A stretch of DNA of 32,000 nt from Candidatus Scalindua sp. (GCA_031316235.1 JALDRA010000001.1:90001-122000), one strand, 5' to 3'. Positions 462 to 32,000 are shown, counted from the stretch's first letter. Made by a program: numbers and translations. The notes: generated by a model not told the origin, from the sequence alone.

Positions 462-796
462 TTATTTCGTGATTGTTTTCTTTATTGAATTACGCCATTT
501 ACCTTCAGCAATATACTAAAACCGATTTGGTTTTCGGTTTTTCTGAAAAACAAATCTTGGTGAAGGTATACTCGCTCCGTTTTTACTCGGATTTTATCCG
601 AAAACTATTATGAAATGAGTATATTTGCTGAAATTGATGTTGCGGATGATTCTAATTGTTCTATCAATCTATAATGATTGCGATCAGAATTCATTGTATC
701 TGCAATGCCAATAACACTCACTGCAAAATCTATAGATTTTTGCCTGACATCTAAATCTTCAAAACTAAACTTTATTTCACACATTTTCTCCATCAT
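462..796 (-). pseudogene. Four-helix-bundle (23S rRNA IVS protein / S23-IVP family) gene copy B1, internally deleted and split by a MITE
   Basis: ORF 608-796 (MMEKMCEIKFSFEDLDV..SISANI) matches the 74-aa copies at 6597 and 8298. The 3' tail (..RNSIKKTITK*) lies at 462-513, separated by a 110-bp insertion at 514-623. Confidence 0.8.
514..623 (-). mobile_element. Correia-like MITE copy C1, inserted in 4HB gene B1
   Basis: Empty site in B3/B4 reads cagcaaTAtttgctg. The filled site here reads cagcaaTA-tactaaaacc...atgagta-TAtttgctg. Confidence 0.85.
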
Positions 797-835
797 TAAC
801 CATCAGCTATGAACTATGAGCTATCAACCATGAGC

Positions 836-1030
836 TCTGTGCAATCTACGGATGAATGTTTTTAAGTTTTTCTGATAAAACGGTCTGTGTTACCGCTGCT
901 ATAGAATTTGAAGGGACGTCTCTGATTTACCACTCTGCCTCCACCAGCAATTGAGTTTCGTCCCAAACGTATTGATTACAGGGGGAGTTCCCAATGGGCA
1001 TATCGATACAAATCATGTCATTATGAGTTT
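836..1030. repeat. Conserved ~195-bp segment U (copy 1) upstream of the 4HB ORF
   Basis: Near-identical to 6861-7056, 8562-8757 and 16715-16910. Confidence 0.8.
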
Positions 1031-1175
1031 TATACTCATCTTATAATGGTTTTCGGGGAAAATCCGGGAAATAACGGAGCGGGTACAAGTCCTCGGCGTT
1101 TTTTGTCCGGGTAAAGTCCTCGGCGCCTGGTTTTGTCCGGGGATACCAGCAAGCCATGCTTTGGTTTTTAGTATA
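1031..1175 (+). mobile_element. MITE copy C2 (variant with duplicated GC-hairpin module)
   Basis: tatactcatcttataatggttttcgg...agtcctcggcg..gtccggg (twice)...ctttggtttttagtata. Confidence 0.8.
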
Positions 1176-1434
1176 TCACGCCAAGCCGCTAAGAACGTAA
1201 AGCATAAAAACTTTTAAAATCTTTCTCCTCGTAGCAGGCTAACAGTAAGTTCTCAAGTGATTTCACGTAGTAAAAGTTAAGTATTCCAATGAAACAATTT
1301 AAGCTTTTACAGGACAGGTGCAATGAGGTCTTTCTTCTTGTGTGAAAGGTAAAATCATTTTATAACAGGCATACTATCTACAGCTCCGCCCTCTCGGTTA
1401 CATTGCTTATGCAACTTACAGATATAAAGTGTTT

Positions 1435-1556
1435 GTTTGAACGAAAACTACCTATCTACGGCGTTACTGTAATAATGACGCAATCCTCACGTACTTGAGT
1501 ACGCTCCGGTTACCTAATTATTTCGCGCCTTGTACCTAAGCAGTTTTGGTTCAAAC
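1435..1556. mobile_element. IR-bounded 122-bp element J
   Basis: Left end GTTTGAACGAAAACTacctatctacggcg. Right end (reverse complement) GTTTGAACCAAAACTgcttaggtacaaggcg. Left-end fragments recur at 9003-9025, 18303-18340 and 24515-24572. Confidence 0.55.
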
Positions 1557-2778: not shown

Positions 2779-3028
2779 ACAATATGCCAGAATGCAGAAT
2801 ATGAAAATATAACATATAACATATCTATACCATTGATGTTAGGAAGGAACGGACTCTTCACAAAAATGACCAGGTGTTAATTTACTCACACCTGGAATAA
2901 CATACTTTCAGAATTATTTCGGTTGCTCTTGACGCAAAACAACTTAGAAACTGTTAAAAAACTAACAGGCTTATGTGAACTTTCTAACAGGTTATGCATT
3001 GCTAAGGTGATTGAGTGGCGGAGGGGTC

Positions 3029-3322
3029 ATGGCTGATGGCTCGTGGCTGATGGCTGATGGTTAAGCGTTCAGGGGTTCTGGGTTCAGAGGTTCGGGGTTC
3101 AGCGTTCAGGGTTCAGCGTTCAGGGTTGATGGCTGATGGCTCATAGCTCATGGCTCATGGTTAAGCGTTCAGAGGTTCGGGGTTCTGGGTTCAGAGGTTG
3201 ATGGCTCATGGCTCATGGTGGTTGGCTCATGGTTAAGCGTTCAGGGGTTCGGGGTTCAGAGGTTCGAGGTTCAGCGTTCAGAGGTTCTGGGTTCAAGGTT
3301 CAGGGTTGATGGCGGATGGCTT
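3029..3322 (+). repeat. Heptamer/octamer tandem array 2
   Basis: Three alternating blocks of ATGGCTSA units and GGTTCWG units, read directly. Confidence 0.9.
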
Positions 3323-3399: not shown

Positions 3400-3512
3400 T
3401 ATACTCATCTTATAATGGTTTTCGGACAAAATCCGAGATAAAATTGAGGGAGTATATCAGCAACCAAGATTTTGTTTCCGGTAAAACCGAAAACCAAATC
3501 GGTTTTAGTATA
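3400..3512 (+). mobile_element. MITE copy C3
   Basis: tatactcatcttataatggttttcggacaaaatccgag...aaaaccgaaaaccaaatcggttttagtata. Shares its terminal TA with C4 (tandem). Confidence 0.85.
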
Positions 3513-3844
3513 TACTCATCAGATAATAGTTCTCGGAGAAAATCCGGAAAAAAACGGAGGGGGCAAAGTCCTCGGAGCCTGGGGAAAGTCCTCGGCGCTT
3601 TTGTCCGGGGATACCATCAATCAGGCTTTGGTTTTTAGAAAAATCCAGTAGTGTCCGGTTAGGTTTTTGCGTATTTAATTTATAGCCCCAAAACTGTCAT
3701 TCCCGCATGTTTTTAGCGGGAATCTATTATGAAACGAGTCTCTGGATACCCGATAAAGACGTTCGGGTATGACAAAAGCCGCCTACGCAAAAACCTAACC
3801 GGACAATGTTGAGAAAAATCTAAAACCAAAGTGGTTTTAGTATA
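3511..3844 (+). mobile_element. MITE copy C4 carrying a nested element E
   Basis: Left part runs to ...ggctttggtttttagaaaaatc (3645). It resumes at agaaaaatctaaaaccaaagtggttttagtata (3812-3844). Confidence 0.8.
3646..3811 (+). mobile_element. 166-bp MITE E copy 1 (21-bp perfect TIR, 9-bp TSD)
   Basis: TIR GTCCGGTTAGGTTTTTGCGTA at 3653-3673 and its exact complement at 3784-3804. Direct duplication AGAAAAATC at 3637-3645 and 3812-3820. Uninterrupted target sequence is seen in MITE copies at 7450-7470 and 18958-18978. Confidence 0.85.
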
Positions 3845-3917: not shown

Positions 3918-3986
3918 CAACTCTCCAACCATGAGCTATGAGCAATCAGCTATGAGCTATGAGCAATCAGCCATGATCCATATGCC

Positions 3987-5183
3987 CTACGCCTGATTTC
4001 TTTCTCTTGATACAAATTCCTTTATTTTCTCACAAACCCTTATCTGCTGATCGTGAGTAAGCTGCGGATACATGGGCAGGGAGAGAATTTCTGATGCTGC
4101 AGCCTCTGATACAGGAAAATCACCCTCTTTGAAGCCGAGGTGTACATAGGCTTTCTGAAGATGAAGAGGTATCGGGTAGTGAAGACCTGTATCAATATCG
4201 TTTTCCGATAGATACGCTTGAAGCTTGTCCCGATTCTTTGTACGTATGATATAAAGGTGATATACTGCCTTTGACCATTCGGGTTCGTAGGGTGTCTTTA
4301 ACCCTTTAACACCGCAAAGTATTTCATTATAACGGTTGGCATTCTGATAGCGATTTTCGTTCCAGGATGAGAGGCGCCTGAGCTTGACCTGTAAGATCCC
4401 CGCCTGTATTGCATCAAGCCTGCCATTGTACCCCTCCCTTTCATGATAATATTTCCTTGTCTGTCCATGATCACGCAGCAGGCGTATTGTCCGAGCTATT
4501 TCTTTATCGTTTGTTGTTATTGCTCCCCCATCTCCAAGCGCTCCCAGGTTTTTCCCGGGATAAAAGCTGAAGGCTGAGACCAGGCCCATTGATCCGGCAA
4601 CTTCCCAGTCTCCAGTTCTTTTTGACTGATATCGAGCACCATGTGCCTGGCACGCATCTTCAACGACAACCAGTTTGTACTTATTGGCGATTTCCATAAT
4701 CGTATCCATCTCAGCCACCTGTCCATAGAGGTGGACGGGTACAACCGCTTTGACTGGTTTTCCGGTTGAGGTGTTAATGAGTTGCTGAGTTTTATGGTCA
4801 ACGCGGCATCTGGTTTCAATATATTCTCTTAACAGGGCGGGATTCATATTATAGGTACGTTCATCAACATCGACGAAAACGGGTAAAGCGCCTGCCTGCG
4901 ATATTGCCTCTGTTGTGGCAATAAAGGTGTTGGGGACGGTAATTACGATATCTCCCTCTTTTATTCCAGCAGCCATCAGGCCGAATCTCAGCGCATCTGT
5001 ACCGCTATTCAGGCCCACACAGTATTTTGTGTTACAAAACGCAGCAAAGTCATTTTCAAAACTTTCGACCATGGGTCCGCCTATAAATCCGGCTGTACGG
5101 AGGGCTTTTTTGAATACTGTCAGAAACTCTTCTTCCAGTTCTAAATGGGGATTGATCAGGTCGATGAAGGGGATATTTTTCAT
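3987..5183 (-). CDS. DegT/DnrJ/EryC1/StrS-family PLP-dependent sugar aminotransferase
   Basis: 398-aa ORF. The N-terminus IPFIDL...GGPMVESFENDFAAFCNTKYCVGLNSGTDAL and the overall length are typical of the family. Confidence 0.9.
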   Translation of the reverse strand: MKNIPFIDLINPHLELEEEFLTVFKKALRTAGFIGGPMVESFENDFAAFCNTKYCVGLNSGTDALRFGLMAAGIKEGDIVITVPNTFIATTEAISQAGALPVFVDVDERTYNMNPALLREYIETRCRVDHKTQQLINTSTGKPVKAVVPVHLYGQVAEMDTIMEIANKYKLVVVEDACQAHGARYQSKRTGDWEVAGSMGLVSAFSFYPGKNLGALGDGGAITTNDKEIARTIRLLRDHGQTRKYYHEREGYNGRLDAIQAGILQVKLRRLSSWNENRYQNANRYNEILCGVKGLKTPYEPEWSKAVYHLYIIRTKNRDKLQAYLSENDIDTGLHYPIPLHLQKAYVHLGFKEGDFPVSEAAASEILSLPMYPQLTHDQQIRVCEKIKEFVSRERNQA

Positions 5184-5208
5184 TTTTTGTAATCCTTTAG
5201 AGGTTAAA

Positions 5209-5320
5209 AGGTTCTGGGTTCAAGGTTCTGGGTTCAGCGTTCAAAGGTTCTGGGTTCTGGGTTCTGGGTTCAAGGTTCAAGGTTAAAAGGTTCTGGGTTC
5301 TGCGTTCTGGGTTCAAAGGT
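5209..5320 (+). repeat. Heptamer array 3 (no ATGGCTSA flanks), between the intact 4HB stop and the degT-like start
   Basis: GGTTAAAAGGTTCTGGGTTCAAGGTTCTGGGTTCAGCGTTCAAAGGTTCTGGGTTCTGGGTTCTGGG... Overlaps the last codons of ORF 5313-5684. Confidence 0.9.
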
Positions 5321-5684
5321 TATTGTAGGTTAGCAAATATTTTATGAAACCACGTATAGTTGCTCTTGTACGTCCGGCATGATCATACACATCCTGAAAA
5401 TCAGCTTTCGTTATGTATTGTTGATCCAATGCAACATACAGCTCACTTTGGACCTCGGTACAAGATCGTTTTGCATATCGAAGAAAACGAACAAACTCAG
5501 GATTTGACTCAGAATCGAATCCTTCAGCAATATTGTGCATAGAAGAACCTGCTGCCCCCTGAATCTGTCTTTTCAAACCAAAGTCGCTATTAAATTTTTC
5601 TCTGTTCGTCAGCTTATAAACTTTCTGAGTTAACTCCCGTGCTAACTGCCACGCCTCAATATCCTCAAACCGTTCTATTTTCAT
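5313..5684 (-). CDS. Four-helix-bundle protein (23S rRNA IVS protein family), apparently intact, distinct subfamily
   Basis: 123 aa. FEDIEAWQLARELTQKVY...IAEGF...EFVRFLRYAKRSCTEVQSELYVA is the family signature. SD-like aggtga lies upstream of the ATG. Confidence 0.9.
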   Translation of the reverse strand: MKIERFEDIEAWQLARELTQKVYKLTNREKFNSDFGLKRQIQGAAGSSMHNIAEGFDSESNPEFVRFLRYAKRSCTEVQSELYVALDQQYITKADFQDVYDHAGRTRATIRGFIKYLLTYNNL

Positions 5685-5706: not shown

Positions 5707-5846
5707 TATACTCATCTCATAATGGTTTTCGGATAAAATCCGAGATAAAATTGAGCAAGTAAAGTCCTCGGCGCTTTTTGTCCGGGGATAACTGCAACCA
5801 AGCTTTGGTTTTTTAAAAAGCCAAAAACCAAATCGGTTTTAGTATA
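5707..5846 (+). mobile_element. MITE copy C5 (long variant)
   Basis: tatactcatctcataatggttttcggataaaatccgag...agtcctcggcgctttttgtccgggg...aaaaaccaaatcggttttagtata. Truncates the MazF-like ORF. Confidence 0.85.
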
Positions 5847-5988
5847 CATTTACAACAGGCAAAATTTGATTGATTTGGTCTTCGCTAATTACCATAACAG
5901 GGCGAGTCTTACCCTCCTCGGAGCCAATGGTTGGATGAAGATTAGCAAGATAAACGTTCCACCTAAAGAAGCCATTTATTACTGCCAC
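5839..5988 (-). pseudogene. MazF/PemK-family toxin, N-terminal ~47 codons only, truncated by MITE C5
   Basis: Own translation from GTG 5988: (M)AVINGFFRWNVYLANLHPTIGSEEGKTRPVMVISEDQINQILPVVNVY*. The ..dl.P..GSE.g..RPv.Vis.d motif is the MazF/EndoA N-terminal signature. The last codons and the stop come from the MITE. Confidence 0.7.
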
Positions 5989-6340
5989 TCCTCTAAGTCA
6001 ACGCATTTTAAATCTTCAGATATCTCTCTTAAATCACTCAAGAAAAGCTTATCCTGCATCACGTTTTTAAGTTCATTGATTTTGTTATACTCATCTCGTA
6101 ATGGTTTTCGGATAAAATCCGAGTTAAAATTGAGCGAGTATACCTTCACCAAGATTTGGTTTCCGGTAAAACCGAAAACCAAATCGGTTTTAGTATATTA
6201 TAATTATCAGTCTTTTTACGGAAAAATATAATGATCTCAATTGGATCGTTTTCTGGAACATGATCAGGAATCTTGATCAGAATCTCATGATTCTTGGGTG
6301 TTCTTACAATTTGCTTGATTGTATCCATATATTTCCGCAT
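5979..6340 (-). pseudogene. Putative antitoxin ORF split by MITE C6
   Basis: ORFs 6146-6340 and 5979-6182 share the MITE-derived middle. Deleting 6086-6195 (110 bp) fuses them in frame into an 83-aa ORF ending EEWQ*, which overlaps the toxin GTG by 10 nt. Confidence 0.6.
6086..6197 (+). mobile_element. MITE copy C6 (type copy, 108 bp plus TA)
   Basis: TA-tactcatctcgtaatggttttcggataaaatccgagttaaaattgagcgagtataccttcaccaagatttggtttccggtaaaaccgaaaaccaaatcggttttagta-TA. Removal restores an ORF. Confidence 0.9.
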
Positions 6341-6437
6341 TTGGGGTTAGAATTTCTTGATTTCTTTTAAGTTACATTACCCAAGATAAAAACTCAAGTA
6401 TTTTTCAGCAAATGACATTTAAGAATTAAAGTATATA

Positions 6438-6594
6438 GTTGATGGCGGATGGCTCATAGCTGATGGTTAAGCGTTCAAAGGTTCTGGGTTCTGGGTTCAG
6501 AGGTTCAGAGGTTCAGGGTTGATGGCTCATAGCTCATGGCGGTTGGCTCATGGTTAAGCGTTCAGGGGTTCAAGGTTGATGGCTGATGGTTGAT
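6438..6594 (+). repeat. Heptamer/octamer tandem array 4
   Basis: Read directly. Ends GTTGATGGCTGATGGTTGA, 5 nt before the stop of ORF 6597-6821. Confidence 0.9.
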
Positions 6595-6596
6595 AA

Positions 6597-6821
6597 TTAT
6601 TTCGTGATTGTTTTCTTTATTGAATTACGCCATTTACCTTCAGCAATATTTGCTGAAATTGATGTTGCGGATGATTCTAATTGTTCTATCAATCTATAAT
6701 GATTGCGATCAGAATTCATTGTATCTGCAATGCCAATAACACTCACTGCAAAATCTATAGATTTTTGCCAGACATCTAAATCTTCAAAACTAAACTTTGT
6801 TTCACACATTTTCTCCATCAT
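6597..6821 (-). CDS. Four-helix-bundle family protein, 74-aa in-frame deletion derivative (copy B3)
   Basis: Identical protein to 8298-8522. Compared with the 129-aa form reconstructable at 12065-12564 it lacks 56 internal codons (junction at GAATT). Confidence 0.7.
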   Translation of the reverse strand: MMEKMCETKFSFEDLDVWQKSIDFAVSVIGIADTMNSDRNHYRLIEQLESSATSISANIAEGKWRNSIKKTITK

Positions 6822-6860
6822 TAACCATCAGCTATGAACTATGAGCTATCAACCATGAGC

Positions 6861-7056
6861 TCTGTGCAATCTGCGGATGAATGTTTTTAAATTTTTCTGA
6901 TAAAACGGTCTCTGCTACCGGCTGCTATAGAATTTGAAGGGACGTATCTGGTTTACCACTCTGCCTCCACCAGCAATTGAGTTTCGTCCCAAACGTATTG
7001 ATTACAGGGGGAGTTCCCAATGGGCATATCGATACAGATCATGTCATTGTGAGTTT
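6861..7056. repeat. Conserved segment U (copy 2)
   Basis: Appears identical to 8562-8757. Close to 836-1030 and 16715-16910. Confidence 0.8.
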
Positions 7057-7169
7057 TATACTCATCTCATAATGGTTTTCGGATGAACTCCGGAAAAAAA
7101 CGGAGCGAGTACAAGTCCTCGGCGTTTTTTGTCCGGGGATACCACCAGCCAGGCTTTGGTTTTAGTATA
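7057..7169 (+). mobile_element. MITE copy C7 (GC-hairpin variant)
   Basis: tatactcatctcataatggttttcggatgaactccgg...acaagtcctcggcgttttttgtccggggataccaccagccaggctttggttttagtata. Confidence 0.85.
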
Positions 7170-7372
7170 TCACGCCAGGACGCTAAGAACGCAAAGCATA
7201 AAAACTTTTAAAATCCTTTATATACATCTTTTCCTGTAAAACAATAGACGCATCAACCACAACCTTGCCTATTTCATTTTCTGTCATTCTTCTTGCGTAA
7301 AAGGTAAAATTATTTTTTTAATTTCATATCCTTTGCGTTCTCTGCGGCTTTGCGAGAAACTATTTTTTGAAA
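7170..7372. repeat. Repeat H (203 bp), containing a GxxExxY-type gene stub on the minus strand
   Basis: Reverse-complement copy at 20105-20604 (with two insertions). Partial copies at 1176-1350, 10455-10515 and 12587-12670. Confidence 0.75.
7219..7287 (-). pseudogene. GxxExxY-type (PD-(D/E)XK_3) protein, N-terminal ~21 codons only
   Basis: Own translation: MTENEIGKVVVDASIVLQEKM then junk. The MTENEI..vvDaaI.vH..lG N-terminus is characteristic of the GxxExxY family, but the GxxExxY motif itself is missing. Confidence 0.55.
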
Positions 7373-7485
7373 TAGACTCATCTCATAATGGTTTTCGGTG
7401 AAAATCCGTGAAAAAACAGAGCGGGTAAATCAGCAGCCAGGCTTTGGTTTTTAGAAAAATCTAAAACCAACTCGGTTTTAGTATA
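7373..7485 (+). mobile_element. MITE copy C8 (variant without GC hairpin)
   Basis: tagactcatctcataatggttttcggtgaaaatccgtg...cagccaggctttggtttttagaaaaatctaaaaccaactcggttttagtata. Confidence 0.8.
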
Positions 7486-8006: not shown

Positions 8007-8294
8007 ATGGCTGATGGCTCATGGCTGATGGTTCTGGGTTCTGGGTTCAGGGTTCAGAGGTTCGGGGTTCAGCGTTCAGAGGTTCTGGGTTCTGGGTTGA
8101 TGGCTCATGGCTCATGGCGGATAGCTCATGGTTAAGCGTTCAGAGGTTCTGGGTTCAAGGTTCAGCGTTCAGAGGTTCGAGGTTCAGGGTTCAGAGGTTC
8201 AAGGTTCTGGGTTCTGGGTTCTGGGTTCAGAGGTTCGGGGTTCAGCGTTCAGAGGTTCTGGGTTCTGGGTTCTGGGTTGATGGCTGATGGTTGA
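8007..8294 (+). repeat. Heptamer/octamer tandem array 5
   Basis: Read directly. Two GGTTCWG blocks separated by an ATGGCTCATGGCTCATGGCGGATAGCTCATGG block. Confidence 0.9.
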
Positions 8295-8297
8295 TAA

Positions 8298-8522
8298 TTA
8301 TTTCGTGATTGTTTTCTTTATTGAATTACGCCATTTACCTTCAGCAATATTTGCTGAAATTGATGTTGCGGATGATTCTAATTGTTCTATCAATCTATAA
8401 TGATTGCGATCAGAATTCATTGTATCTGCAATGCCAATAACACTCACTGCAAAATCTATAGATTTTTGCCAGACATCTAAATCTTCAAAACTAAACTTTG
8501 TTTCACACATTTTCTCCATCAT
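8298..8522 (-). CDS. Four-helix-bundle family protein, 74-aa in-frame deletion derivative (copy B4)
   Basis: Same protein as 6597-6821. Flanks 8281-8786 read identical to 6580-7085. Confidence 0.7.
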   Translation of the reverse strand: MMEKMCETKFSFEDLDVWQKSIDFAVSVIGIADTMNSDRNHYRLIEQLESSATSISANIAEGKWRNSIKKTITK

Positions 8523-8561
8523 TAACCATCAGCTATGAACTATGAGCTATCAACCATGAGC

Positions 8562-8757
8562 TCTGTGCAATCTGCGGATGAATGTTTTTAAATTTTTCTG
8601 ATAAAACGGTCTCTGCTACCGGCTGCTATAGAATTTGAAGGGACGTATCTGGTTTACCACTCTGCCTCCACCAGCAATTGAGTTTCGTCCCAAACGTATT
8701 GATTACAGGGGGAGTTCCCAATGGGCATATCGATACAGATCATGTCATTGTGAGTTT
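8562..8757. repeat. Conserved segment U (copy 3)
   Basis: Appears identical to 6861-7056. Confidence 0.8.
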
Positions 8758-8853
8758 TATACTCATCTCATAATGGTTTTCGGATAAAATCCGAGATAAA
8801 CGGAGCGAGTACAAGTCCTCGGCGTTTTTTGTCCGGGGATACCAGCAGCCAGG
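8758..8853 (+). mobile_element. MITE copy C9, 3'-truncated
   Basis: Matches C7 up to ...ggggataccagcagccagg, then diverges. Confidence 0.75.
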
Positions 8854-9171
8854 CGGCTGGTATTTGGTGAAATGGCCAATGAGCTTCTCCTATCAAGCAC
8901 ACGAGTAGTACCAAAAAGGCTTTTAGAGTCATGATACCATTTCCAATATCCAGAACTTGAAAATGCCCCGGACCATATTTCACATTCAACATAAGTTATT
9001 GGGTGGCTGAACGAAAACTGCGCGGAGAGGGAAGTTTGGGTCATGGTTGAGGTATGACAGTACCTGGTTGATTGACAGCGCTTTGTCCCAAAGCTTTCGC
9101 CCTGTACCTTGCGTCTTCAATCATAAGCCATGAGCTAATATGCCATATACCATAAGCACTTGTGCAGGCTT

Positions 9172-9748: not shown

Positions 9749-9860
9749 TATACTCATCTCATAATGGTTTTCGGATAAAATCCGAGATAAAATTGAGCGA
9801 GTATACCTTCACCAAGATCTGGTTTCAGGTAAAACCGAAAACCAAATCGGTTTTAGTATA
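9749..9860 (+). mobile_element. MITE copy C10
   Basis: Near-identical to C6. Confidence 0.9.
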
Positions 9861-9949: not shown

Positions 9950-10062
9950 TATACTCATCTTTTAATGATTTTCTGATAAATTCCGTGAAAAAACAGCACG
10001 GGTACAAGTCCTCGGCGTTTTTTGTCCGGAGATATCAGCAATCTAGCTTTGGTTTTAGTATA
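9950..10062 (+). mobile_element. MITE copy C11 (diverged GC-hairpin variant)
   Basis: tatactcatcttttaatgattttctgataaattccgtg...acaagtcctcggcgttttttgtccggagatatcagcaatctagctttggttttagtata. Confidence 0.8.
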
Positions 10063-10071: not shown

Positions 10072-10450
10072 ATGGCTGATGGCTCATAGCTGATGGTTCA
10101 GCGTTCAGGGGTTCTGGGTTCAAGGTTCAGGGTTCAGAGGTTCAGCGGTTCAAGGTTCAGAGGTTCAGGGTTCAGAGGTTCAGAGGTTCAAGGTTCAGAG
10201 TTCAGAGGTTCTGGGTTCAGGGTTCAAGGTTCAAGGTTCAAGGTTCAGGGTTCAGAGGTTCAGAGGTTCAAGGTTCTGGGTTAAGCGTTCAGGGGTTAAG
10301 CGTTCAGGGGTTCTGGGTTCTGGGTTCTGGGTTCAAGGTTCTGGGTTCAAGGTTCTGGGTTCAAGGTTCAAGGTTCTGGGTTCAAGGTTCAAGGTTCTGG
10401 GTTCAAGGTTCTGGGTTCTGGGTTCTGGGTTCAGGGTTGATGGCTCATGG
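10072..10450 (+). repeat. Heptamer/octamer tandem array 6 (longest, ~380 bp; no 4HB ORF attached)
   Basis: Read directly. Includes GGGGTTCTGGGTTCTGGGTTCTGGG at 10307-10331 and a second four-run G tract near 10413-10437. Confidence 0.9.
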
Positions 10451-11849: not shown

Positions 11850-11910
11850 GACAGATATGGGTTCAGGGAAATATACTTTAACGGTCCGGATGGAAAGGTT
11901 TTAGTATATC

Positions 11911-12066
11911 ATGGCTCATAGCTCATGGCTCATGGCTGATGGTTCAAGGTTCAGAGGTTCAGCGTTCAGGGTTGATGGCTGATGGCTGATGGTTCAGCGT
12001 TCAAAGGTTCTGGATTCTGGGTTCAGAGGTTCAAGGTTCAGCGTTCAGAGTTGATGGTTCAGGGTT
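11911..12066 (+). repeat. Heptamer/octamer tandem array 7
   Basis: Read directly. Preceded by a MITE right-end remnant ggttttagtata (11897-11908). Confidence 0.9.
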
Positions 12067-12564
12067 ATTTCGTAATTGTTTTCTTTATTGAATTTATGAG
12101 ACTTGAAAGTTGTTTACCTATTGTATCTCCTACTATTCGTAAATCATTAAGCTTTGAATTGGAGATCCAATTCTTTTTGTAAAATATAGTTAAAAAAGTA
12201 ATTGTTTCAAATAGTGAGCCCCGTGCAATATATAGATATTGGATGAATTCTTTTTGGAATTACGTCCTTTCCCTTCAGCAATATACTAAAACCGATTTGG
12301 TTTTCGGTTTTTCTGAAAAACAAATCTTGGTTGCAGTTATACTCGCTCCGTTTTTACTCGGATTTTATCCGAAAACTATTATGAAATGAGTATATTTGCT
12401 GAAATTGATGTTGCGGATGATTCTAATTGTTCTATCAATCTATAATGATTGCGATCAGAATTCATTGTATCTGCAATGCCAATAACACTCACTGCAAAAT
12501 CTATAGATTTTTGCCAGACATCTAAATCTTCAAAACTAAACTTTGTTTCACATATTTTCTCCAT
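12065..12564 (-). pseudogene. Four-helix-bundle gene copy B5: undeleted (129-aa) form, disrupted by a MITE and a 1-nt frameshift
   Basis: After removing 12284-12394 and adding one A to the run at 12251-12255, the minus strand reads MEKICETKF...SISANIAEGKGRNSKKEFIQYLYIARGSLFETITFLTIFYKKNWISNSKLNDLRIVGDTIGKQLSSLINSIKKTITK*. Confidence 0.75.
12284..12394 (-). mobile_element. MITE copy C12 in 4HB gene B5 (same TA as C1 and C15)
   Basis: cagcaaTA-tactaaaaccgatttgg...atgagta-TAtttgctg. Confidence 0.85.
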
Positions 12565-12586
12565 CTTTAACCATCAGCTATGAGCC

Positions 12587-12622
12587 ATCAACCACAACCT
12601 TGCCTATTTCATTTTCTGTCAT
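12587..12622 (-). pseudogene. GxxExxY-type gene stub (12 codons) fused to the upstream IR of 4HB copy B5
   Basis: Minus strand ATGACAGAAAATGAAATAGGCAAGGTTGTGGTTGATGG = MTENEIGKVVVD. Confidence 0.45.
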
Positions 12623-13802: not shown

Positions 13803-13856
13803 TATACGCATCGCATAATGGTTTTGAGAAAAATATAAAACCAAATCGTTTTCATA
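13803..13856 (+). mobile_element. MITE copy C13, degenerate with internal deletion
   Basis: tatacgcatcgcataatggttttgagaaaaatataaaaccaaatcgttttcata. Confidence 0.5.
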
Positions 13857-13874
13857 AAGTTTGAAAAGATCATC

Positions 13875-16074: not shown

Positions 16075-16159
16075 TATACTCATCTCATAATGTTTTTCGG
16101 ATAAAATCCGAAATAAAATTGAGCGAGTATACCGGAAGCCAGGCCTTGGTTTTAGTATA
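16075..16159 (+). mobile_element. MITE copy C14 (short 85-bp variant)
   Basis: tatactcatctcataatgtttttcggataaaatccgaaataaaattgagcgagtataccggaagccaggccttggttttagtata. Confidence 0.85.
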
Positions 16160-16168
16160 TCACGCCAC

Positions 16169-16340: not shown

Positions 16341-16675
16341 TTATTTCGTGATTGTTTTCTTTATTGAATTACGCCATTTACCTTCAGCAATATACTAAAA
16401 CCAATTTGGTTTTCGGTTTTTCTGAAAAACAAATCTTGGTGAAGGTATACTCGCTCCGTTTTTACTCGGATTTTATCCGAAAACTATTATGAAATGAGTA
16501 TATTTGCTGAAATTGATATTGCGGATGATTCTAATTGTTCTATCAATCTATAATGATTGCGATCAGAATTTGTTGTATCTGCAATGCCAATAACACTCAC
16601 TGCAAAATCTATAGATTTTTGCCAGGCATCTAAATCTTCAAAACTAAACTTTGTTTCACACATTTTCTCCATCAT
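16341..16675 (-). pseudogene. Four-helix-bundle gene copy B6, internally deleted and split by a MITE
   Basis: Same structure as B1. ORF 16487-16675 plus a tail at 16341-16392. Confidence 0.8.
16393..16502 (-). mobile_element. MITE copy C15 in 4HB gene B6
   Basis: Same insertion point and near-identical sequence to C1. Confidence 0.85.
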
Positions 16676-16714
16676 TAACCATCAGCAATGAACTATGAGC
16701 TATCAACCATGAGC

Positions 16715-16910
16715 TCTGTGCAATCTGCGGATGAATGTTTTTAAATTTTTCTGATTCAATGGTATCTTTTACCGGCTACTGTAGAATTTGAAGGGACGTC
16801 TCTGCTTTACCACTCTGCCTGCACCAGCAATTGAGTTTCGCCCCAAACGTATTGAGTACAGGGAGAGTTCCCAATGGGTATATCGATACAGATCATGTCA
16901 TTGTGGGTTT
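16715..16910. repeat. Conserved segment U (copy 4, most diverged)
   Basis: Aligns with 6861-7056, with scattered substitutions. Confidence 0.8.
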
Positions 16911-17010
16911 CATACTCATCTTATAATGGTTTTCAGATAAAATCCGAGAAAAAAAGAGCGAGCGTACCAGCAGCCAGGCTTAGGTTTTTAGAAAAATCTA
17001 AAACCAAACC
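16911..17010 (+). mobile_element. MITE copy C16, 3'-truncated
   Basis: catactcatcttataatggttttcagataaaatccgag...ccagcagccaggcttaggtttttagaaaaatctaaaaccaaacc. Confidence 0.7.
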
Positions 17011-17237
17011 GCTCTTCGGATACGGGAGGTGCTGGGAGCACTGGAAGGCGATTGTACGAATACTTCCCGGATAGAAAGATCGCTCATTTCCTAACCATAC
17101 TTCAGGATTAAGGAATGTTTACATGATTTGAGCAGGCGGGTAGTATTTGGGCAACCACCAGGTATCCGTTCAAGATCCGGATAGAGAAATACCGGCAGTG
17201 ATATTTTGCAAGAATGGAAGATGCTGTCTCTCCAGAC

Positions 17238-18187: not shown

Positions 18188-18278
18188 TATACGCATCTCA
18201 AAATGGTGTTCGGATACGAACAGCGCAAGTATACCATCAATCAGGCTATGTTTCTAGAAAAATAAAAAACTAAATCGG
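18188..18278 (+). mobile_element. MITE copy C17, degenerate
   Basis: tatacgcatctcaaaatggtgttcggatacgaacagcgcaagtataccatcaatcaggctatgtttctagaaaaataaaaaactaaatcgg. Confidence 0.5.
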
Positions 18279-18344
18279 ACGACACTGATTCCTTATAAAG
18301 TTTAACGGCTGAACGAAGATCCACCATCTGCTGCGCTTCGGTAA

Positions 18345-18456
18345 TATACTAAAACCGATTTGGTTTTCGGTTTTACCGGAAACCAAATCTTGGTGAAGGT
18401 ATACTCGCTCAAATTTATCTCGGATTTTATCCGAAAACCATTATAAGATGAGTATA
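18345..18456 (-). mobile_element. MITE copy C18
   Basis: Reverse complement is near-identical to C6. Confidence 0.9.
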
Positions 18457-18854: not shown

Positions 18855-18994
18855 TATAGACTCATCTTATAGTGATTTTCGGATACAATCCGAAAAAAAA
18901 CGGAGCGAGTACAAGTCCTCAGCGTCTGTCCGGGGATACCATTAACCAGGCTTTGGTTTTTAGAAAAATCTAAAACCAAATCGGTTTTAGTATA
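18855..18994 (+). mobile_element. MITE copy C19 (long 140-bp variant)
   Basis: tatagactcatcttatagtgattttcggatacaatccg...acaagtcctcagcgtctgtccgggg...tttttagaaaaatctaaaaccaaatcggttttagtata. Confidence 0.85.
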
Positions 18995-19991: not shown

Positions 19992-20104
19992 TATACGAAA
20001 ACCGATTTAGTTTTAGTTTTTTCTAAAAAGCAAAGCTTGGTTGCTGGTATACTCGCTCCGTTTTTTCTCGGATTTTATCTGAAAACTATTATCTGCTGAG
20101 TATA
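19992..20104 (-). mobile_element. MITE copy C20
   Basis: Reverse complement: tatactcagcagataatagttttcagataaaatccgag...agcaaccaagctttgctttttagaaaaaactaaaactaaatcggttttcgtata. Confidence 0.8.
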
Positions 20105-20323: not shown

Positions 20324-20375
20324 ATGCAAATTGAAAAATAAATAAAAAAATATTTTTACCTTTTAAGCAAGAAGA

Positions 20376-20444
20376 ATGACAGAAAATGAAATAGACAAGG
20401 TTGTGGCTGATGAGTCTATTGTTTTACAGGAAAAGATGTATATA
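20376..20444 (+). pseudogene. GxxExxY-type gene stub
   Basis: ATGACAGAAAATGAAATAGACAAGGTTGTGGCTGATGAG... = MTENEIDKVVADESIVLQEKM, cut by MITE C21. Confidence 0.5.
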
Positions 20445-20555
20445 TACTAAAACCGATTTGGTTTTCGGTTTTACCGGAAACAAAATCTTGGTTGCTGGTA
20501 TACTTGCTCAAATTTATCTCGGATTTTATCCGAAAACCATTATGAGATGAGTATA
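20443..20555 (-). mobile_element. MITE copy C21 inserted in repeat H
   Basis: Filled site gatgtataTA-tactaaaacc...gagta-TAaaagatttt. The homologous empty site (reverse complement of 7212-7230) reads gatgtatataaaggatttt. Confidence 0.9.
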
Positions 20556-20604
20556 AAAGATTTTAAATGTTTTTATGCTTTGCGTTCTTAGCGTCTTGGC
20601 GTGA

Positions 20605-20690
20605 TATACTGAAAACCAAAGCCTGTCTGCTAGTATACTCGCTCCGTTTTTTCTCGGATTTCATCTGAAAACTATTATAAGATGAGTATA
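20605..20690 (-). mobile_element. MITE copy C22 (short variant), 33 bp upstream of the glmS ATG
   Basis: Reverse complement parallels C14. Confidence 0.85.
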
Positions 20691-20723
20691 ACCTAAAACC
20701 TTTTTCCAATAGGAGATTACATA

Positions 20724-22550: not shown

Positions 22551-22603
22551 GGGTTTTCGTAAAAACAATTTCCCCTTTCAAGCCCAGATAATTTCACTAC
22601 CGG

Positions 22604-22849
22604 TCAGGCAGGATTTCCGCTGATTCTGCTGATCTGCATCAGCTTGTTATTCTGGTCAACTACCATTTCAAACATCCCGTGTATTCCATTTCGTGTTACG
22701 AATTGTCTCAAGACAGAGGCAGGGAACTTTACCTTTCTGCCACAATAAGTCTCTACAAACACAGATGTTGCCAGACCTTTATAGTAAGCAGCGTAATCAT
22801 CAGGAGAGATGTGGAGAGAAAATTGAAACCGTTTATGTTCATCATTCAC
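22604..22849 (-). CDS. DUF2835-like small protein
   Basis: FQFSLHISPDDYAAYYKGLATSVFVETYCGRKVKFPASVLRQFVTRNGIHGMFEMVVDQNNKL matches my recollection of the DUF2835 pattern (F.L.IS...YY.G....V.....G..v.fPA...r.F.t..GI.G.F....d.nnk). Confidence 0.55.
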   Translation of the reverse strand: MNDEHKRFQFSLHISPDDYAAYYKGLATSVFVETYCGRKVKFPASVLRQFVTRNGIHGMFEMVVDQNNKLMQISRISGNPA

Positions 22850-22860
22850 TTTTTACCTGT

Positions 22861-23000
22861 TATACTCATCTTATAATAGCTTCCGGATACAATCTGAAAA
22901 AAAACGGACCAAGGAAAGTCCCCGGCGTTATCTATCCGGAGATACCAGCAACCTGGCTTTGGTTTTCAGAGAAATCTAACATTACAGCGGTTTTGGTATA
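22861..23000 (+). mobile_element. MITE copy C23 (long, diverged)
   Basis: tatactcatcttataatagcttccggatacaatctg...agtccccggcgttatctatccggagataccagcaacctggctttggttttcag...ggttttggtata. Confidence 0.75.
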
Positions 23001-23064
23001 CTGTACAAAATTTTCCCTCTCAATCAAGAAAAATTGTAAAACAGCTTTTCTCAAATTAAAATTA

Positions 23065-23093
23065 TTGACTCCTCATACATCTCCTTATACAAT
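23065..23093 (+). promoter_or_regulatory. Candidate sigma-70-type promoter (TTGACT-17 nt-TACAAT) facing the HtrA-type gene
   Basis: TTGACT at 23065-23070, 17-nt spacer, TACAAT at 23088-23093, in the only unique DNA between two MITEs. Sequence match only. Confidence 0.3.
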
Positions 23094-23183
23094 CTCACAT
23101 AAGTTCATTAACCGGAATCAGGCTTCTGATGCACTGTGTGACTCTGCGAGCTAAATTTCGTGCGGGAGAACATCGGACGAAAA

Positions 23184-23323
23184 TATACTCACCTTATACT
23201 AGTCTTCGGATACAATCCGAAAAAAACGGAACGGGTACAAGTCCTCGGCTCCTTTTGTCCGAGGATACCAGCAACCTGGCTCTGGTTTTCAGGAAAATCT
23301 AAAACCAGAGTGACTTTAGTATA
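23184..23323 (+). mobile_element. MITE copy C24 (long variant) in the putative 5' leader of the HtrA-type gene
   Basis: tatactcaccttatactagtcttcggatacaatccg...acaagtcctcggctccttttgtccgaggatacc...aaaatctaaaaccagagtgactttagtata. Confidence 0.8.
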
Positions 23324-24514: not shown

Positions 24515-24572
24515 GTTGAACGAAAACTGCCCATCTGCTGCGTTACGGTCTTAATTCCTTAATACTCCGGTA
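24515..24572. repeat. Element J fragment (left end with internal deletion)
   Basis: ggttgaacgaaaactgcccatctgctgcgttacgg...ctccggtac parallels 1437-1515. Confidence 0.5.
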
Positions 24573-24577
24573 CATTA

Positions 24578-24662
24578 GTACAAGTCCTCGGCTTTTGTCC
24601 AGGAACACCAGCAACCAGGCTTTGGTTTTCAGAGAAACCGAAAACCAGATCGGTTTTCGTAT
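24578..24662 (+). mobile_element. MITE copy C25, 5'-truncated
   Basis: gtacaagtcctcggcttttgtccaggaacaccagcaaccaggctttggttttcagagaaaccgaaaaccagatcggttttcgtat. Confidence 0.7.
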
Positions 24663-24675
24663 CCTCACAATAATA

Positions 24676-28904: not shown

Positions 28905-29000
28905 GACAGACTCTCTCTCTAGAGTTTTGTGGAGCTGCAGAGCAGAAACGTCGTTTCTTACCGTGACAAAATTTATGAATCACAGGGGTTTCTCAGATGA

Positions 29001-30776
29001 TCAATTGCGGCTGCTTTTACGTATCAGCTCCTTCGTACGTTCGTACAGTAATTTTAAATCAGAAATCTGCCTGTTTATCTCTTCCCGTTCAGACCACCGG
29101 TGGTCTCTATGGGCAGATATCTTATTTCCGATCTCCTCGATTACCCGATCAACAACTTTTTCAAACTCAAACATCATTAAATTGTTGAATCTTTCACATA
29201 CGGCATCCGTTCTCTTAAAAAACTCTTTCCGATACTTTCTCCGTTTTATTGGAAAAATCACAAAACCTGCCCCTGCAAGAATTAATGTGAAGGAAACGCC
29301 TATAACATTCGGGATTACAAAGGCCAGAAAGGTTGTAAGGCTTATTATTATACCAATTGCAAGCCCTTCCAGAATAATGAAATTAACAAATCCATTTTGT
29401 ACCGCCCGGTGCATCCTCTCCACCTCTAATTCACCATCAAGTTCCTGGAATTGCTTTGCATACTCTTTTAAATTACCATACTCTTCAGCTCCGATGCTAT
29501 CGAAGTGATGGTCCTTCCGAACCAGTGAGGCTTCACCTGATTTGCGTTGATTATCAATTTCCGTTTCTACGTAATCATACGCCATGTCCCACAGGATATT
29601 GTTGTTTCTGTCGATATACTCAATAGCATCCTTTATGATTCTGTCTATATCAGTACCGGGCCCGGTAAACCCGAATACCTCCCGTTTAAACTTTTCATCG
29701 ATCTTATCCCGTGAAAATTTCATGGCAATTACCGATCTGATGTTCACATAATAATTCAGAAAGCTCTCGACTTTCTCTTTTAATCTTGAAAAAATTGCCT
29801 GGATCTCGGTCTGGTATTTAGCAAGATACTCACGCATATCTTTTTTCTTGTTTTCCAACCGCTTCTGAAACATTTCAACATTCTTAATTTCTGTATTACA
29901 CTGCTTTACTTTTTTATCAAGAATATCTCTGCGTTCATTTAAGATATTTAACAGGTATTGCAGCGGGCTCAATATCTTAAGGTCCATTCTGGACTCGAAA
30001 TCTAATTTATCATAGATAAAATCTTCTACCTCTTCAATGTTGCTTTTTATCAATAATTCTTTATCTTGAGAATGTTTGGCATTAAATGCATCCCTGGCTG
30101 ACACTTTAATGATCTTTGGTTCAAAGCCAAAGATCCTGTAAAAGTTTTTCTCGATGAAGGGCAATATTTCATTCGTGTCTTCATCGGTTTTCAGGTCAAT
30201 CTTATTGAGTATGACCACCAGTTTTCTCCCCCACTTTCCCTTGAGAAGCTGCAGAAACAACTTTTCACTTTCAGTAAAGGGCCGGTCTGCTGATGTGATA
30301 AAAAGAACCAGCTCAGCCCGATGGATAAACCCTTCGGTAATCGCCTGATGCTCAGTGATTATTGAATTTGTTCCAGGTGTATCGACAACGGTAATATCCT
30401 TTAGTGCATTAAGAGGATATGTCATCCTGCATTGATGATCATCAACCTCTTCAGAAGAGATATCATCACCATACGTCAGGAGCGTAATTTTGTGTGTGGA
30501 AGGAGTCGGTCCTGCGGGTAATATCTTCTGTCCGCAAAGTGCGTTAACGAGGCTGGATTTTCCGGCATTATACTCCCCGGCTACAATGATATAGAGAGGC
30601 TCCCTCATCTGAGACGCCATTTCTGCAACCTTTTTTTCTATCGCGACATCTCCAACTCGATAAAAAAACCCTTTCGCTTCTTCGAGGAGATTGATAACGC
30701 GGGAGAATCTATCCTCTTTTTCTTCAGTTTTTGCTATTTCCAACATAATATTCATAGTGATTAACAAGCCAGCCAC
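29001..30776 (-). CDS. Bacterial dynamin-like GTPase
   Basis: G1 GEYNAGKSSLVNAL, G3 DTPG, G4 NKID. Long helical stalk and a hydrophobic hairpin near the C-terminus (FIILEGLAIGIIISLTTFLAFVIPNVIGVSFTLILAGAGFVIF). Confidence 0.8.
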   Translation of the reverse strand: MAGLLITMNIMLEIAKTEEKEDRFSRVINLLEEAKGFFYRVGDVAIEKKVAEMASQMREPLYIIVAGEYNAGKSSLVNALCGQKILPAGPTPSTHKITLLTYGDDISSEEVDDHQCRMTYPLNALKDITVVDTPGTNSIITEHQAITEGFIHRAELVLFITSADRPFTESEKLFLQLLKGKWGRKLVVILNKIDLKTDEDTNEILPFIEKNFYRIFGFEPKIIKVSARDAFNAKHSQDKELLIKSNIEEVEDFIYDKLDFESRMDLKILSPLQYLLNILNERRDILDKKVKQCNTEIKNVEMFQKRLENKKKDMREYLAKYQTEIQAIFSRLKEKVESFLNYYVNIRSVIAMKFSRDKIDEKFKREVFGFTGPGTDIDRIIKDAIEYIDRNNNILWDMAYDYVETEIDNQRKSGEASLVRKDHHFDSIGAEEYGNLKEYAKQFQELDGELEVERMHRAVQNGFVNFIILEGLAIGIIISLTTFLAFVIPNVIGVSFTLILAGAGFVIFPIKRRKYRKEFFKRTDAVCERFNNLMMFEFEKVVDRVIEEIGNKISAHRDHRWSEREEINRQISDLKLLYERTKELIRKSSRN

Positions 30777-30925
30777 AAATTGGATACCCTGATATGGATC
30801 TGTATCTAAACCTCCCTCTCAAAAAGATTATATGCTCTCATATGTATGCGTCAAGCAAATTTTCTCTTCATACTCATTGCAATTGAATCAGGTAATCGGG
30901 CAAAGTTCTGCCGCAATAGCTGTAA

Positions 30926-31843
30926 TTAAAACCCTCCACTTAATTGTTTATATATCGATACCTCCCGCATTGCCTTATCCTTATCTCCCTTATTCCAATA
31001 CGCATAGCCGAGATTATTGTGGGCATCAGGAAATGTGGGATTTATCTCTATCGCCTTGAGAAGTATGGTTATGGCCTCATCAAACATCCCCTTTTCACAA
31101 TAAATCATACCAATGTTACTATACGCTTCAACAAATTTTGAATCAAGCTCTATCACCTTCTGAAATTCCTTTATTGCATCATCATGCATTCCACGTTCAT
31201 AATAAAGAAATCCAAGGTTATTGTAGGCTTCCTTAAAATTCGGGTTAAGTTCTATGGACTTCTTAAGTTCAGAAATTGCTTCATCGTACAATCCCATACC
31301 ATGAAGAACATTTTCAAGTGTGTAGTGAATATCCGGATTATCGGGATCAATATCAAGCGCTGACTTAAGTTCCGCCATGGCCTTTTCAAGAAAACCCAGC
31401 TTGAAATAAGCATGCCCGATGTTCCGATACGCTTCAGCATTTCCGGGTTCAATTTCGAGCACTTTCCGCAGCTCTTCAATACTTTCGTTATACTGCTCCT
31501 GATCAGCGTAGAGAAGTGACAGATTGGTTCGTGCCTCAATAAAATCGGGTTTTATCCTGATAGCCTTTTTATACTCAACGACTGCGTCATTATACCTCCT
31601 TTTCTTAGCATACAGAATACCAAGATTGAAATGCGCATCCGGGTTTTCAGGATTTGTCTCAACTTCTTTATTATAGTGTATAATTTTTTTGTCATCTTCC
31701 TTCATACCATGAGTATGCTTGTCTATATGCTCGGCATACTCTTTATCCAAATGCTCCTGATCTTCATCAGCCGCATAGCTGCAACCCGTAAAACCAAAAG
31801 CAACTACCCAAAACACAAAGATGATACACATACACTTGCTCAT
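30926..31843 (-). CDS. TPR-repeat lipoprotein
   Basis: Lipobox-like FGFTGC after a signal peptide. About 7 canonical TPR units (A..Y..A..L.P...A..NLG). Confidence 0.8.
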   Translation of the reverse strand: MSKCMCIIFVFWVVAFGFTGCSYAADEDQEHLDKEYAEHIDKHTHGMKEDDKKIIHYNKEVETNPENPDAHFNLGILYAKKRRYNDAVVEYKKAIRIKPDFIEARTNLSLLYADQEQYNESIEELRKVLEIEPGNAEAYRNIGHAYFKLGFLEKAMAELKSALDIDPDNPDIHYTLENVLHGMGLYDEAISELKKSIELNPNFKEAYNNLGFLYYERGMHDDAIKEFQKVIELDSKFVEAYSNIGMIYCEKGMFDEAITILLKAIEINPTFPDAHNNLGYAYWNKGDKDKAMREVSIYKQLSGGF

Positions 31844-31886
31844 GACTCCCTCTCTTTATTTTCAAAAAACCCTGTTCCGATTGAAA

Positions 31887-32000
31887 TATACTAAAACCGA
31901 TCTGGTTTTAGATTTCTCTGAAAACCAAAGCCTGGTTACTGGTATTCCCGGACAAAAGTCGCCGGGGACTTTCCCCTGACACAAAACGCCAAGGACTTTA
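31887..32000 (-). mobile_element. MITE copy C26 (duplicated GC-hairpin variant), cut by the window end
   Basis: tatactaaaaccgatctggttttagatttctctgaaaaccaaagcctggttactggtattcccggacaaaagtcgccggggacttt... Confidence 0.75.

Follow-up and report, generated by a model that had tools for sequence, protein, structure and literature searches.

A TA-inserting miniature transposable element of marine Candidatus Scalindua and its probable IS630-family parent

The 32-kb stretch of DNA analysed here (hereafter the window), from the marine anammox bacterium Candidatus Scalindua, carries about 26 copies of a short repeat, that is one copy per ~1.2 kb. Very probably, these repeats are non-coding, non-autonomous derivatives of the IS630 family (Tc1/mariner superfamily), or MITEs (miniature inverted-repeat transposable elements), moved in trans by an insertion sequence (IS) of ~1,121 bp or by a close variant of it. 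The repeats are multi-copy, have invariant ends, encode nothing and disrupt genes; the target TA is duplicated at eight sites, the ends are IS-like, and repeat and IS occur together in two genomes. An earlier note on the window had proposed a TA-targeting MITE of IS630/mariner type with its transposase outside the window, and the eight TA sites and the matching IS support that proposal.

Sequence sample

Related elements were sought with a degenerate 26-nt left-end pattern run against one genome per bacterial species; at least 119 stretches matched, none of which is overlapped by the window. The wider census covered 927 kb of Scalindua/Scalinduaceae loci together with the window, and since the loci were picked by the 26-nt end pattern, this sample is biased to conserved copies. 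For nhmmer, one profile each of the left module (L) and the right module (R) was built from ten copies. For further pairs of filled and empty sites, the 60-nt flanks of each element were joined round a single TA and all sampled DNA was searched.

Filled and empty insertion sites

Mobility with a 2-bp TA duplication is demonstrated eight times, by comparisons with unrelated flanks in which the filled site exceeds the empty one by exactly the element and one TA. Two of them lie in the window, five in other Scalindua genomes, and one sets an interrupted gene against its homologue in Candidatus Scalindua japonica. The first concerns five paralogous truncated 23S_rRNA_IVP four-helix-bundle (4HB) genes (families D3 and D4; Pfam), two of which are empty (6587-6708 and 8288-8409) and read cagcaaTAtttgctg, while the other three (filled at 512-623, 12282-12394 and 16391-16502) have 110-111 extra nt between two TAs at the identical place; the target TA is the centre of an 8-bp palindrome. 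In the second, the empty site (7160-7280) reads CTT TA TATACATC and the filled one lies at 20443-20555. Alignment of 7150-7330 with the reverse complement of 20330-20640 gives 94% identity, with the element as the sole gap and one TA becoming two.

The third comparison starts from a gene. Taking out 6086-6195 restores an open reading frame (ORF) of 83 aa on the minus strand, with 37 homologues of 79-81 aa (best 85% identity, 95% coverage); it aligns without gaps across the junction with a protein of S. japonica, whose DNA has the uninterrupted site and in which the gene stands upstream of a PemK-family toxin gene. A Pfam scan of the restored frame matched no family. Judged by the homologues and the uninterrupted gene before the PemK toxin of S. 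japonica, the element has split the antitoxin-like gene of a toxin-antitoxin pair. It should be added that 3' of this gene (5866-6340, minus strand) the expected PemK/MazF-type toxin frame has stop codons and, with the antitoxin interrupted as well, the whole toxin-antitoxin pair looks inactivated.

The five pairs from other genomes (L112/L088, L054/L072, L030/L006, L042/L060 and L018/L025) follow the same rule: each empty copy is colinear and gapless over the junction, with one TA against TA-element-TA in its filled counterpart. The three window comparisons, and the rule that the extra DNA equals the element plus one TA, had been put forward in the earlier note. They stood up to realignment, the rule now covering all eight cases and the 83-aa frame being backed by its homologues; the concern that the empty sites might prove non-homologous on proper alignment did not come true, the alignments being gapless save for the element.

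These sites also bear on whether the repeats could have been propagated by recombination, through segmental duplication of larger repeats, or as repetitive extragenic palindromic (REP) sequences and their mosaics (BIMEs) served by a REP-associated tyrosine transposase (RAYT), instead of by TA-specific DDE transposition. Several window copies did increase in number together with their flanks: there are five 4HB cassettes, and five copies with a short R module have the right flank TCACGCCA in common. Such spread is nevertheless extremely improbable as the origin of the family, being largely refuted by eight sites with unrelated flanks, each precisely element plus TA; the flanks of 132 elements are likewise diverse, and the element is ~112 nt long with terminal inverted repeats, against 20-40 nt for REP. 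No RAYT gene was found among the scanned ORFs of the window or the multi-copy ORF clusters (>=150 aa) of the loci, the latter without a RAYT or Pfam profile search.

Structure and copy number of the element

A full-length copy consists, in this order, of a terminal TA, the L hairpin (~55 nt), a 27-nt GC hairpin (G; AAGTCCTCGG-loop-CCGGGGA) that is either absent or present in up to four tandem copies, a second hairpin, R (~57 nt), and TA. No ORF lies inside it. Its ends, TATACTC...TTAGTATA, are invariant in 132 elements, partly through hit selection. The 24-nt termini are identical at 16 of 24 positions (18/26 over 26 nt), TATACT and TGGTTTTCGG being the common parts, which confirms the inverted repeats described earlier. 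In the L module, RNAalifold places an outer stem of 7+3 bp and a 7-bp tip (TTCGGAT/ATCCGAG).

The loci and the window together yielded 174 L-module and 143 R-module hits and 132 unique complete elements. Their length classes, 112/113 nt (48 copies), ~139, ~166, ~194 and ~223 nt, rise in steps of 27 nt, hence zero to four G hairpins per element. The stems of the L module and the 27-nt steps bear out the modular build claimed in the earlier note. Its "one or two right-hand modules" can be refined: the short R form (…GGCTTTGGTTTTAGTATA) matches the product expected if R, which contains two GGTTTT direct repeats, underwent a deletion between them, and is better read in that way.

Flanks of the 132 elements show A at -1 in 48% and T at +1 in 63%, and a shortage of C at -2 and of G at +2, so the target context is weakly palindromic and A/T-rich. 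The genome-wide profile count with flanks that had been suggested, run here on the 927 kb of loci, thus gave many copies with TA at their ends and A/T-rich surroundings.

Within the window, at <=3 mismatches, the 24-mer of the left end was found 17 times and that of the right end 13 times, against 0 expected for either in dinucleotide-preserving shuffles, and nhmmer gave ~25 L-module and ~24 R-module hits. Manual curation left 27 intervals (25 copies that can be recognised as such, a remnant of one right end, and a copy truncated where the window stops), which sum to 3,212 nt or 10% of the window, counting a 160-nt foreign element nested in one copy; the earlier estimate of ~26 copies and ~9 percent is borne out. 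Elements measure 55-143 nt in the window and 112-250 nt in other genomes. Not all 26 window copies are independent insertions, since segmental duplication (families D3, D4, D10) has multiplied the three inside the 4HB gene as well as those that lie downstream of its cassette.

Such a compact, structured repeat might instead be a host-selected element (a terminator, promoter, RNA-processing site or small RNA) that owed its spread and conservation to function and not to selfish transposition. Copies do fold into two or three hairpins, a three-module copy forming three as single-stranded DNA (z = -2.5 against shuffles); the 112-nt class has 94% mean column identity across different species (pairwise ~87-97% within and between genomes); and some right-end hairpins with T runs look terminator-like, some terminal TATACT boxes promoter-like. 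Promoter-like and terminator-like sites are, however, not enriched over shuffles (41 vs 48 and 16 vs 17), copies interrupt coding sequences, and a covariance-model scan of the whole window at Rfam gathering thresholds gave 0 matches, which also answers the earlier call for an Rfam check: the family is not an RNA described there. Any compensatory change was seen in 2 of 28 predicted pairs, few because the copies are 94% alike, too similar for informative covariation. Host selection would leave the TA duplication unexplained and is compatible with transposition; as an account of the spread we hold it to be very unlikely.

An IS630-family insertion sequence as candidate parent

A first lead, and no more than a lead, came from an IS630 transposase sequence used as tblastn query. 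It matched the start of L045 (L045:3-524), on contig_13 of the Scalinduaceae genome CBDCUS, where the frame ends in an IS630-like C-terminus (…NFQIIGTNT and stop), with ACCTAAAACCATTTCGTAATGAGTATA (...AATGAGTATA) directly after it and then unrelated DNA. Read from outside, this IS end is TATACTCATTACGAAATGGTTTTAGG. Comparison of the 166-aa fragment with metagenome contigs returned 80 loci, several with a complete element (Table 1). Each complete IS is ~1,121 bp long, begins and ends with TATAC… read inwards, and has a single ORF of 343-347 aa. In NCBIfam the 343-aa transposase matches NF033545 (IS630 family transposase) with 210 bits, the cut-off being 100; it carries the Pfam domains HTH_23, HTH_29 and HTH_33, in its N-terminal part, and the catalytic domain DDE_3 (PF13384, PF13551, PF13592, PF13358), all above their cut-offs; 35 residues, counted by reading the sequence, separate the second D (ICDNARYY) from E (NLIERLW).

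The ends of IS and MITE are alike. Of 26 positions in the IS right repeat, 21-22 (23 for the L208 variant) agree with the MITE left end and 18-20 with the MITE right end, in the latter case with likeness running subterminally (GGTTTT…AAACCAAT) to ~42 nt. The match is exactly in register at the IS terminus and has two blocks, TATACTCAT and ATGGTTTT-GG.

The IS is itself repeated. An identical 343-aa protein (P0051) occurs at five CBDCUS loci with the same two IS ends, different flanks and TA at both boundaries. In the genome SCAELEC01, the IS 3' end forms the start of three contigs, each of which runs on into a flank of its own, and the IS 5' end closes a fourth contig. Short-read assemblers usually leave this pattern when they collapse a multi-copy IS. 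IS and MITE thus co-occur in CBDCUS and SCAELEC01. The Logan contigs with the transposases P0044 and P0060 come from samples other than the window's, and a look-up of the named Scalindua transposase P0084 gave no record.

IS630/Tc1-mariner transposition is defined by duplication of TA, by terminal repeats that are imperfect, and by a DDE_3 transposase in which helix-turn-helix (HTH) domains are paired. On the TA duplication and the similarity of ends, we read the elements as probable IS630-derived MITEs moved in trans, the same two arguments by which the RUP repeat of pneumococcus was attributed to IS630-Spn1 (PMC2229807).

Several observations weigh against this reading. The likeness of MITE and IS ends is 70-88%, short of identity, and both MITE ends are nearer to the right than to the left IS repeat. 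No IS copy was found in the 32-kb window, the rest of its genome lying outside the search, nor in the sampled loci of the genome RBC_AMX3, despite many MITE copies there. Telling the TA at the IS ends apart from the repeat would take an empty IS site. That the terminal TA never varies in the logo of MITE ends is partly circular, as profile hits had to reach column 1; the filled and empty pairs are free of this circularity.

On these grounds the family could be an orphan MITE of the Correia or ERIC (enterobacterial repetitive intergenic consensus) kind, TA-mobile and moved by an unrelated or now-lost transposase, with the IS630 likeness due to shared ancestry or to convergence on TA-proximal sequence. 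End identity is imperfect, at 18-23/26; neither the window nor the sampled RBC_AMX3 loci contain the IS, and no element with exact MITE ends carries an IS630-kind transposase. A search of the 927 kb of loci for a large element bounded by MITE ends gave just two cases, both MITEs with an IS110-family insertion, and no IS630-kind or DDE transposase inside one. Solo left and right ends were truncated or nested copies with no internal sequence in common, and clustering of multi-copy ORFs (>=150 aa) in the loci gave no IS transposase, only a group II intron reverse transcriptase. Against an orphan origin stand the register and the two blocks of the match, its subterminal continuation at the right end, the multi-copy IS in two MITE-carrying genomes, and the TA duplication, a hallmark of IS630-family transposases; we regard that origin as improbable. 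The search for an IS630/mariner-type transposase with the same 24-bp ends, which the earlier note had recommended, therefore came out half-way: the exact ends were not found on such an IS, while an IS630-family IS with similar ends was.

Under the preferred IS630 derivation, transposase would be supplied in trans by IS copies elsewhere in the genome and would bind both MITE ends. The element would be excised or copied and then integrated at a TA, preferably in an A/T-rich, roughly palindromic context, with duplication of the TA. Copies may later have diversified by tandem gain or loss of the GC hairpin, by internal deletions, by nested insertion of other small elements and by segmental duplication along with flanks. 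The part of this particular transposase, and cut-and-paste chemistry typical of IS630/Tc1, we infer from the ends and the target.

Other candidates were rejected. An IS110-family insertion sits in the G hairpin loop and not at the MITE ends, and its two MITE backbones differ. A tblastn hit of the IS630 query in L011 was spurious, the translated sequence looking like a membrane transporter gene. The hit in L065 (L065:1620-2072, Scalindua RBC_AMX3) is a degenerate gene of a different IS630-like transposase (…LDNLKVHH…LPSYSPELNPDE…), a remnant with no MITE-like ends nearby.

Distribution among genomes

Among the matches listed, all stretches with the left-end pattern belong to metagenome-assembled genomes (MAGs) of Candidatus Scalindua/Scalinduaceae, in four species-level genomes (SCAELEC01, RBC_AMX3, CBDCUS and OFTM1), with most hits in SCAELEC01. 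Mean pairwise identity is alike within and between genomes, and some copies are identical in genomes of different species. This likeness would fit recent activity, interspecies exchange or a conserved master copy.

No description of this MITE family was found in the searched literature on MITEs or transposases of Scalindua and anammox bacteria. A term search of a 2024 review of prokaryotic MITEs gave nothing for "planctomyc", and its passage on taxonomic distribution leaves the phylum unmentioned (PMC10969869).

Copies and neighbouring features in the window

The genes of the window are ordinary chromosomal ones (DegT aminotransferase, ParA, a ClpB fragment, GlmS, HtrA, SerS, IspF, TPR proteins). 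No transposase was found among its genes and ORFs, in agreement with the earlier note and confirmed by ORF scans and the IS search; a tRNA scan gave nothing. For the GlmS protein, the sole public contig found with the exact sequence is L120 (Logan SRR28338162, short-read, 2,687 nt, covering ~20580-23270 of the window), whose ends coincide with the MITE copies at 20607-20690 and 22861-23000. All copies are collected in Table 1.

Table 1. Positions of MITE copies, empty target sites and heptamer arrays in the window, and of complete IS copies in other loci (L, G, R: modules of the MITE)
Feature	Position	Strand	Remarks
MITE copy, L+R (112 nt)	512..623	-	inside truncated 23S_rRNA_IVP (4HB) gene; empty paralogues 6587-6708, 8288-8409
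MITE copy, L + 2 G hairpins + short R	1031..1173	+	TRF: 27-nt period x2.1 at 1080-1141
MITE copy, L+R (113 nt)	3400..3512	+	abuts next copy (3511..3844), TA common to both
MITE copy, L + 2 G + R	3511..3844	+	foreign ~160-nt inverted-repeat element (3647-3808) nested in R loop
MITE copy, L+G+R (140 nt)	5707..5846	+	DNA fold: three hairpins, z = -2.5
MITE copy, L+R (112 nt)	6086..6197	+	interrupts small antitoxin-like gene
Empty target site cagcaaTAtttgctg in 4HB gene copy	6647..6661; second empty copy 8348-8362	.	TA central in 8-bp palindrome
MITE copy, L+G+short R	7057..7169	+	belongs to duplicated 4HB cassette
Empty target site of second comparison	7212..7230	.	
MITE copy, L+R (113 nt), diverged	7373..7485	+	starts with TAGACTC
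MITE copy, L+G, R truncated	8758..8862	+	
MITE copy, L+R (112 nt)	9749..9860	+	
MITE copy, L+G+short R	9950..10062	+	followed by TCACGCCA and heptamer array
Right-end remnant GGTTTTAGTATA	11890..11912	+	adjoins heptamer array (family D5)
MITE copy, L+R (113 nt)	12282..12394	-	in 4HB gene copy
Minimal diverged copy (55 nt)	13803..13857	+	hardly more than two terminal repeats
MITE copy, L+short R (86 nt)	16075..16160	+	
MITE copy, L+R (112 nt)	16391..16502	-	in 4HB gene copy
MITE copy, L+R, termini decayed	16911..17026	+	
Degenerate MITE copy	18188..18285	+	
MITE copy, L+R (112 nt)	18345..18456	-	
MITE copy, L+G+R (138 nt)	18857..18994	+	
MITE copy, L+R (113 nt), diverged	19992..20104	-	
MITE copy, L+R (113 nt)	20443..20555	-	filled site of second comparison (repeat H)
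MITE copy, L+short R (84 nt)	20607..20690	-	
MITE copy, L+G+R (140 nt), diverged	22861..23000	+	
MITE copy, L+G+R (140 nt), diverged	23184..23323	+	
Partial MITE copy, G+R	24560..24664	+	left module lost
MITE copy cut by window end	31887..32000	-	R + 2 G visible
Heptamer arrays	264-442, 3059-3307, 5202-5321, 6430-6590, 8030-8278, 10095-10438, 11925-12066, 16192-16321		
Complete IS	L121:2-1122		
Complete IS	L122:100-1221		
Complete IS	L123:69-1189		
Complete IS	L124:1-1122		contig consists of the IS alone

Other repeats accompany the MITE copies. Eight tandem arrays of heptamers (GGTTCAG/GGTTCTG mixed with GGCTGAT/GGCTCAT), of up to ~48 units, lie in the first 17 kb of the window and often adjoin MITE copies and the repeated 4HB cassette. 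The cassette (541-920, 6566-6945, 8267-8646, 12312-12691 and 16420-16799) contains the truncated 23S_rRNA_IVP gene of 74 aa, which matches only the first half of the Pfam model, and is bordered by heptamer arrays upstream and a MITE copy downstream. Directly after the five short-R copies, whose left flanks differ, stands TCACGCCA (1174, 7168, 10061 and 16158 on the plus strand, 20606 on the minus strand), followed by a heptamer array or a common ~70-nt repeat; this junction is absent from the 119 loci of other Scalindua genomes.

Nested elements

In two RBC_AMX3 loci (L059:4440-6277 and L104:3148-5009) a ~1.7-kb IS110-family element (Pfam DEDD_Tnp_IS110 and Transposase_20, ORF frameshifted) lies in the 27-nt GC hairpin loop of two different MITE copies, the loop sequence being CGGCGCCTGGTTT^TGTCCGGGG. 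The inserted elements share 99.5% identity but sit in different MITE backbones and between different outer flanks, which suggests that the IS110-family element may target the GC hairpin site-specifically. Other IS110 members target REP sequences.

The ~160-nt insert at 3647-3808 is a second, unrelated MITE-like element with the inverted ends GTGTCCGGTTAGGTTTTTGCGTA and TACGCAAAAACCTAACCGGACA, and the same R-loop nesting was found in two loci of another genome, L068 (near 3984-4003) and L113. GC-rich palindromes of 27-60 nt (e.g. CCTGCCTGTGCGATGCACGCAGACAGG) occur in MITE hairpin loops of L104, L082, L062, L045, L093, L022, L073 and L077; in this they resemble the tiny nested repeats known from Nostoc.

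A wider reading would be that the family is active now, is exchanged among Scalindua species and serves as a nesting hub, its GC-hairpin loop being a specific landing site of the IS110-family (DEDD) element, its hairpin loops collecting GC-rich palindromes and its R loop a second MITE-like element. We put this forward tentatively, as possible but on the whole doubtful.

Comparison with known systems

The Scalindua MITE family adds a new, well-documented case to a type of element already known, with RUP and IS630-Spn1 as the closest analogue, and its mechanism adds nothing new beyond that pair. The BOX elements of Streptococcus pneumoniae (boxA-boxB(n)-boxC) are modular too and have a tandem-variable middle module, boxB there and G in the L-G(0-4)-R arrangement of Scalindua. 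They are not known to have clear IS-matching terminal inverted repeats or TA duplication, both features of the Scalindua element, and show no sequence relationship to it. REP/BIME palindromes with RAYT differ in length (20-40 nt), in the absence of a target duplication and in the Y1 transposase, the Scalindua element being ~112 nt long with TA duplication. As regards the IS630 family, the proposed parent agrees with it in its size of ~1.1 kb, single ORF, HTH and DDE_3 domains, imperfect terminal repeats and TA at both boundaries, whereas the MITE encodes nothing.

With the Correia elements of Neisseria (CREE/NEMIS), to which the earlier note had likened the family, it has in common the small size, TA at both ends, TA duplication, size variants by internal deletion, hairpins, and a position often near genes and sometimes inside them. 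Correia elements are not known to have an identified parent transposase, whereas a candidate parent IS can be named for the Scalindua MITE. The 26-nt Correia terminal repeat (TATAGCGGATTAACAAAAATCAGGAC) has 0 matches in the window at <=3 mismatches, and terminal TATA alone is common to both. "Correia-like" is thus apt as an analogy; the family is not a Correia element, as its terminal repeat is absent and a candidate parent can be named. Promoter, integration host factor (IHF)-site and RNase III functions belong to Correia elements in the passages of the 2024 review that treat them (PMC10969869), and we do not ascribe them to the Scalindua element.

RUP is likewise a non-coding repeat of ~107 nt with about a hundred copies, inserted at TA, with genes and other repeats among its targets; a resident IS630-family IS has similar terminal repeats and is therefore proposed as its mobiliser (PMC2229807). 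Differences lie in the host (Firmicutes against Planctomycetota anammox bacteria), in the lack of recognised sequence similarity, in the variable count of internal GC hairpins and in the likeness of both Scalindua ends to the IS right repeat.

Significance

Much of the nitrogen lost from the oceans is due to marine Scalindua, which have not been grown in pure culture and about which nearly all knowledge comes from metagenome assemblies in fragments. An abundant MITE, together with its multi-copy putative parent IS, helps to explain the breaks in short-read assemblies: the contig with GlmS ends at MITE copies and the SCAELEC01 contigs end inside the IS; these repeats break such assemblies. The element also inactivates genes, as in the antitoxin of a toxin-antitoxin pair and in copies of the 23S_rRNA_IVP gene, and its insertion polymorphisms could act as strain markers. 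The family would further extend MITEs to a phylum missing from the taxonomic distribution passages of the 2024 review (PMC10969869). Should the more doubtful view of an active, exchanged element and nesting hub prove true, the repeat landscape of marine anammox genomes and the fragmentation of their assemblies would in large part be shaped by a single small element.

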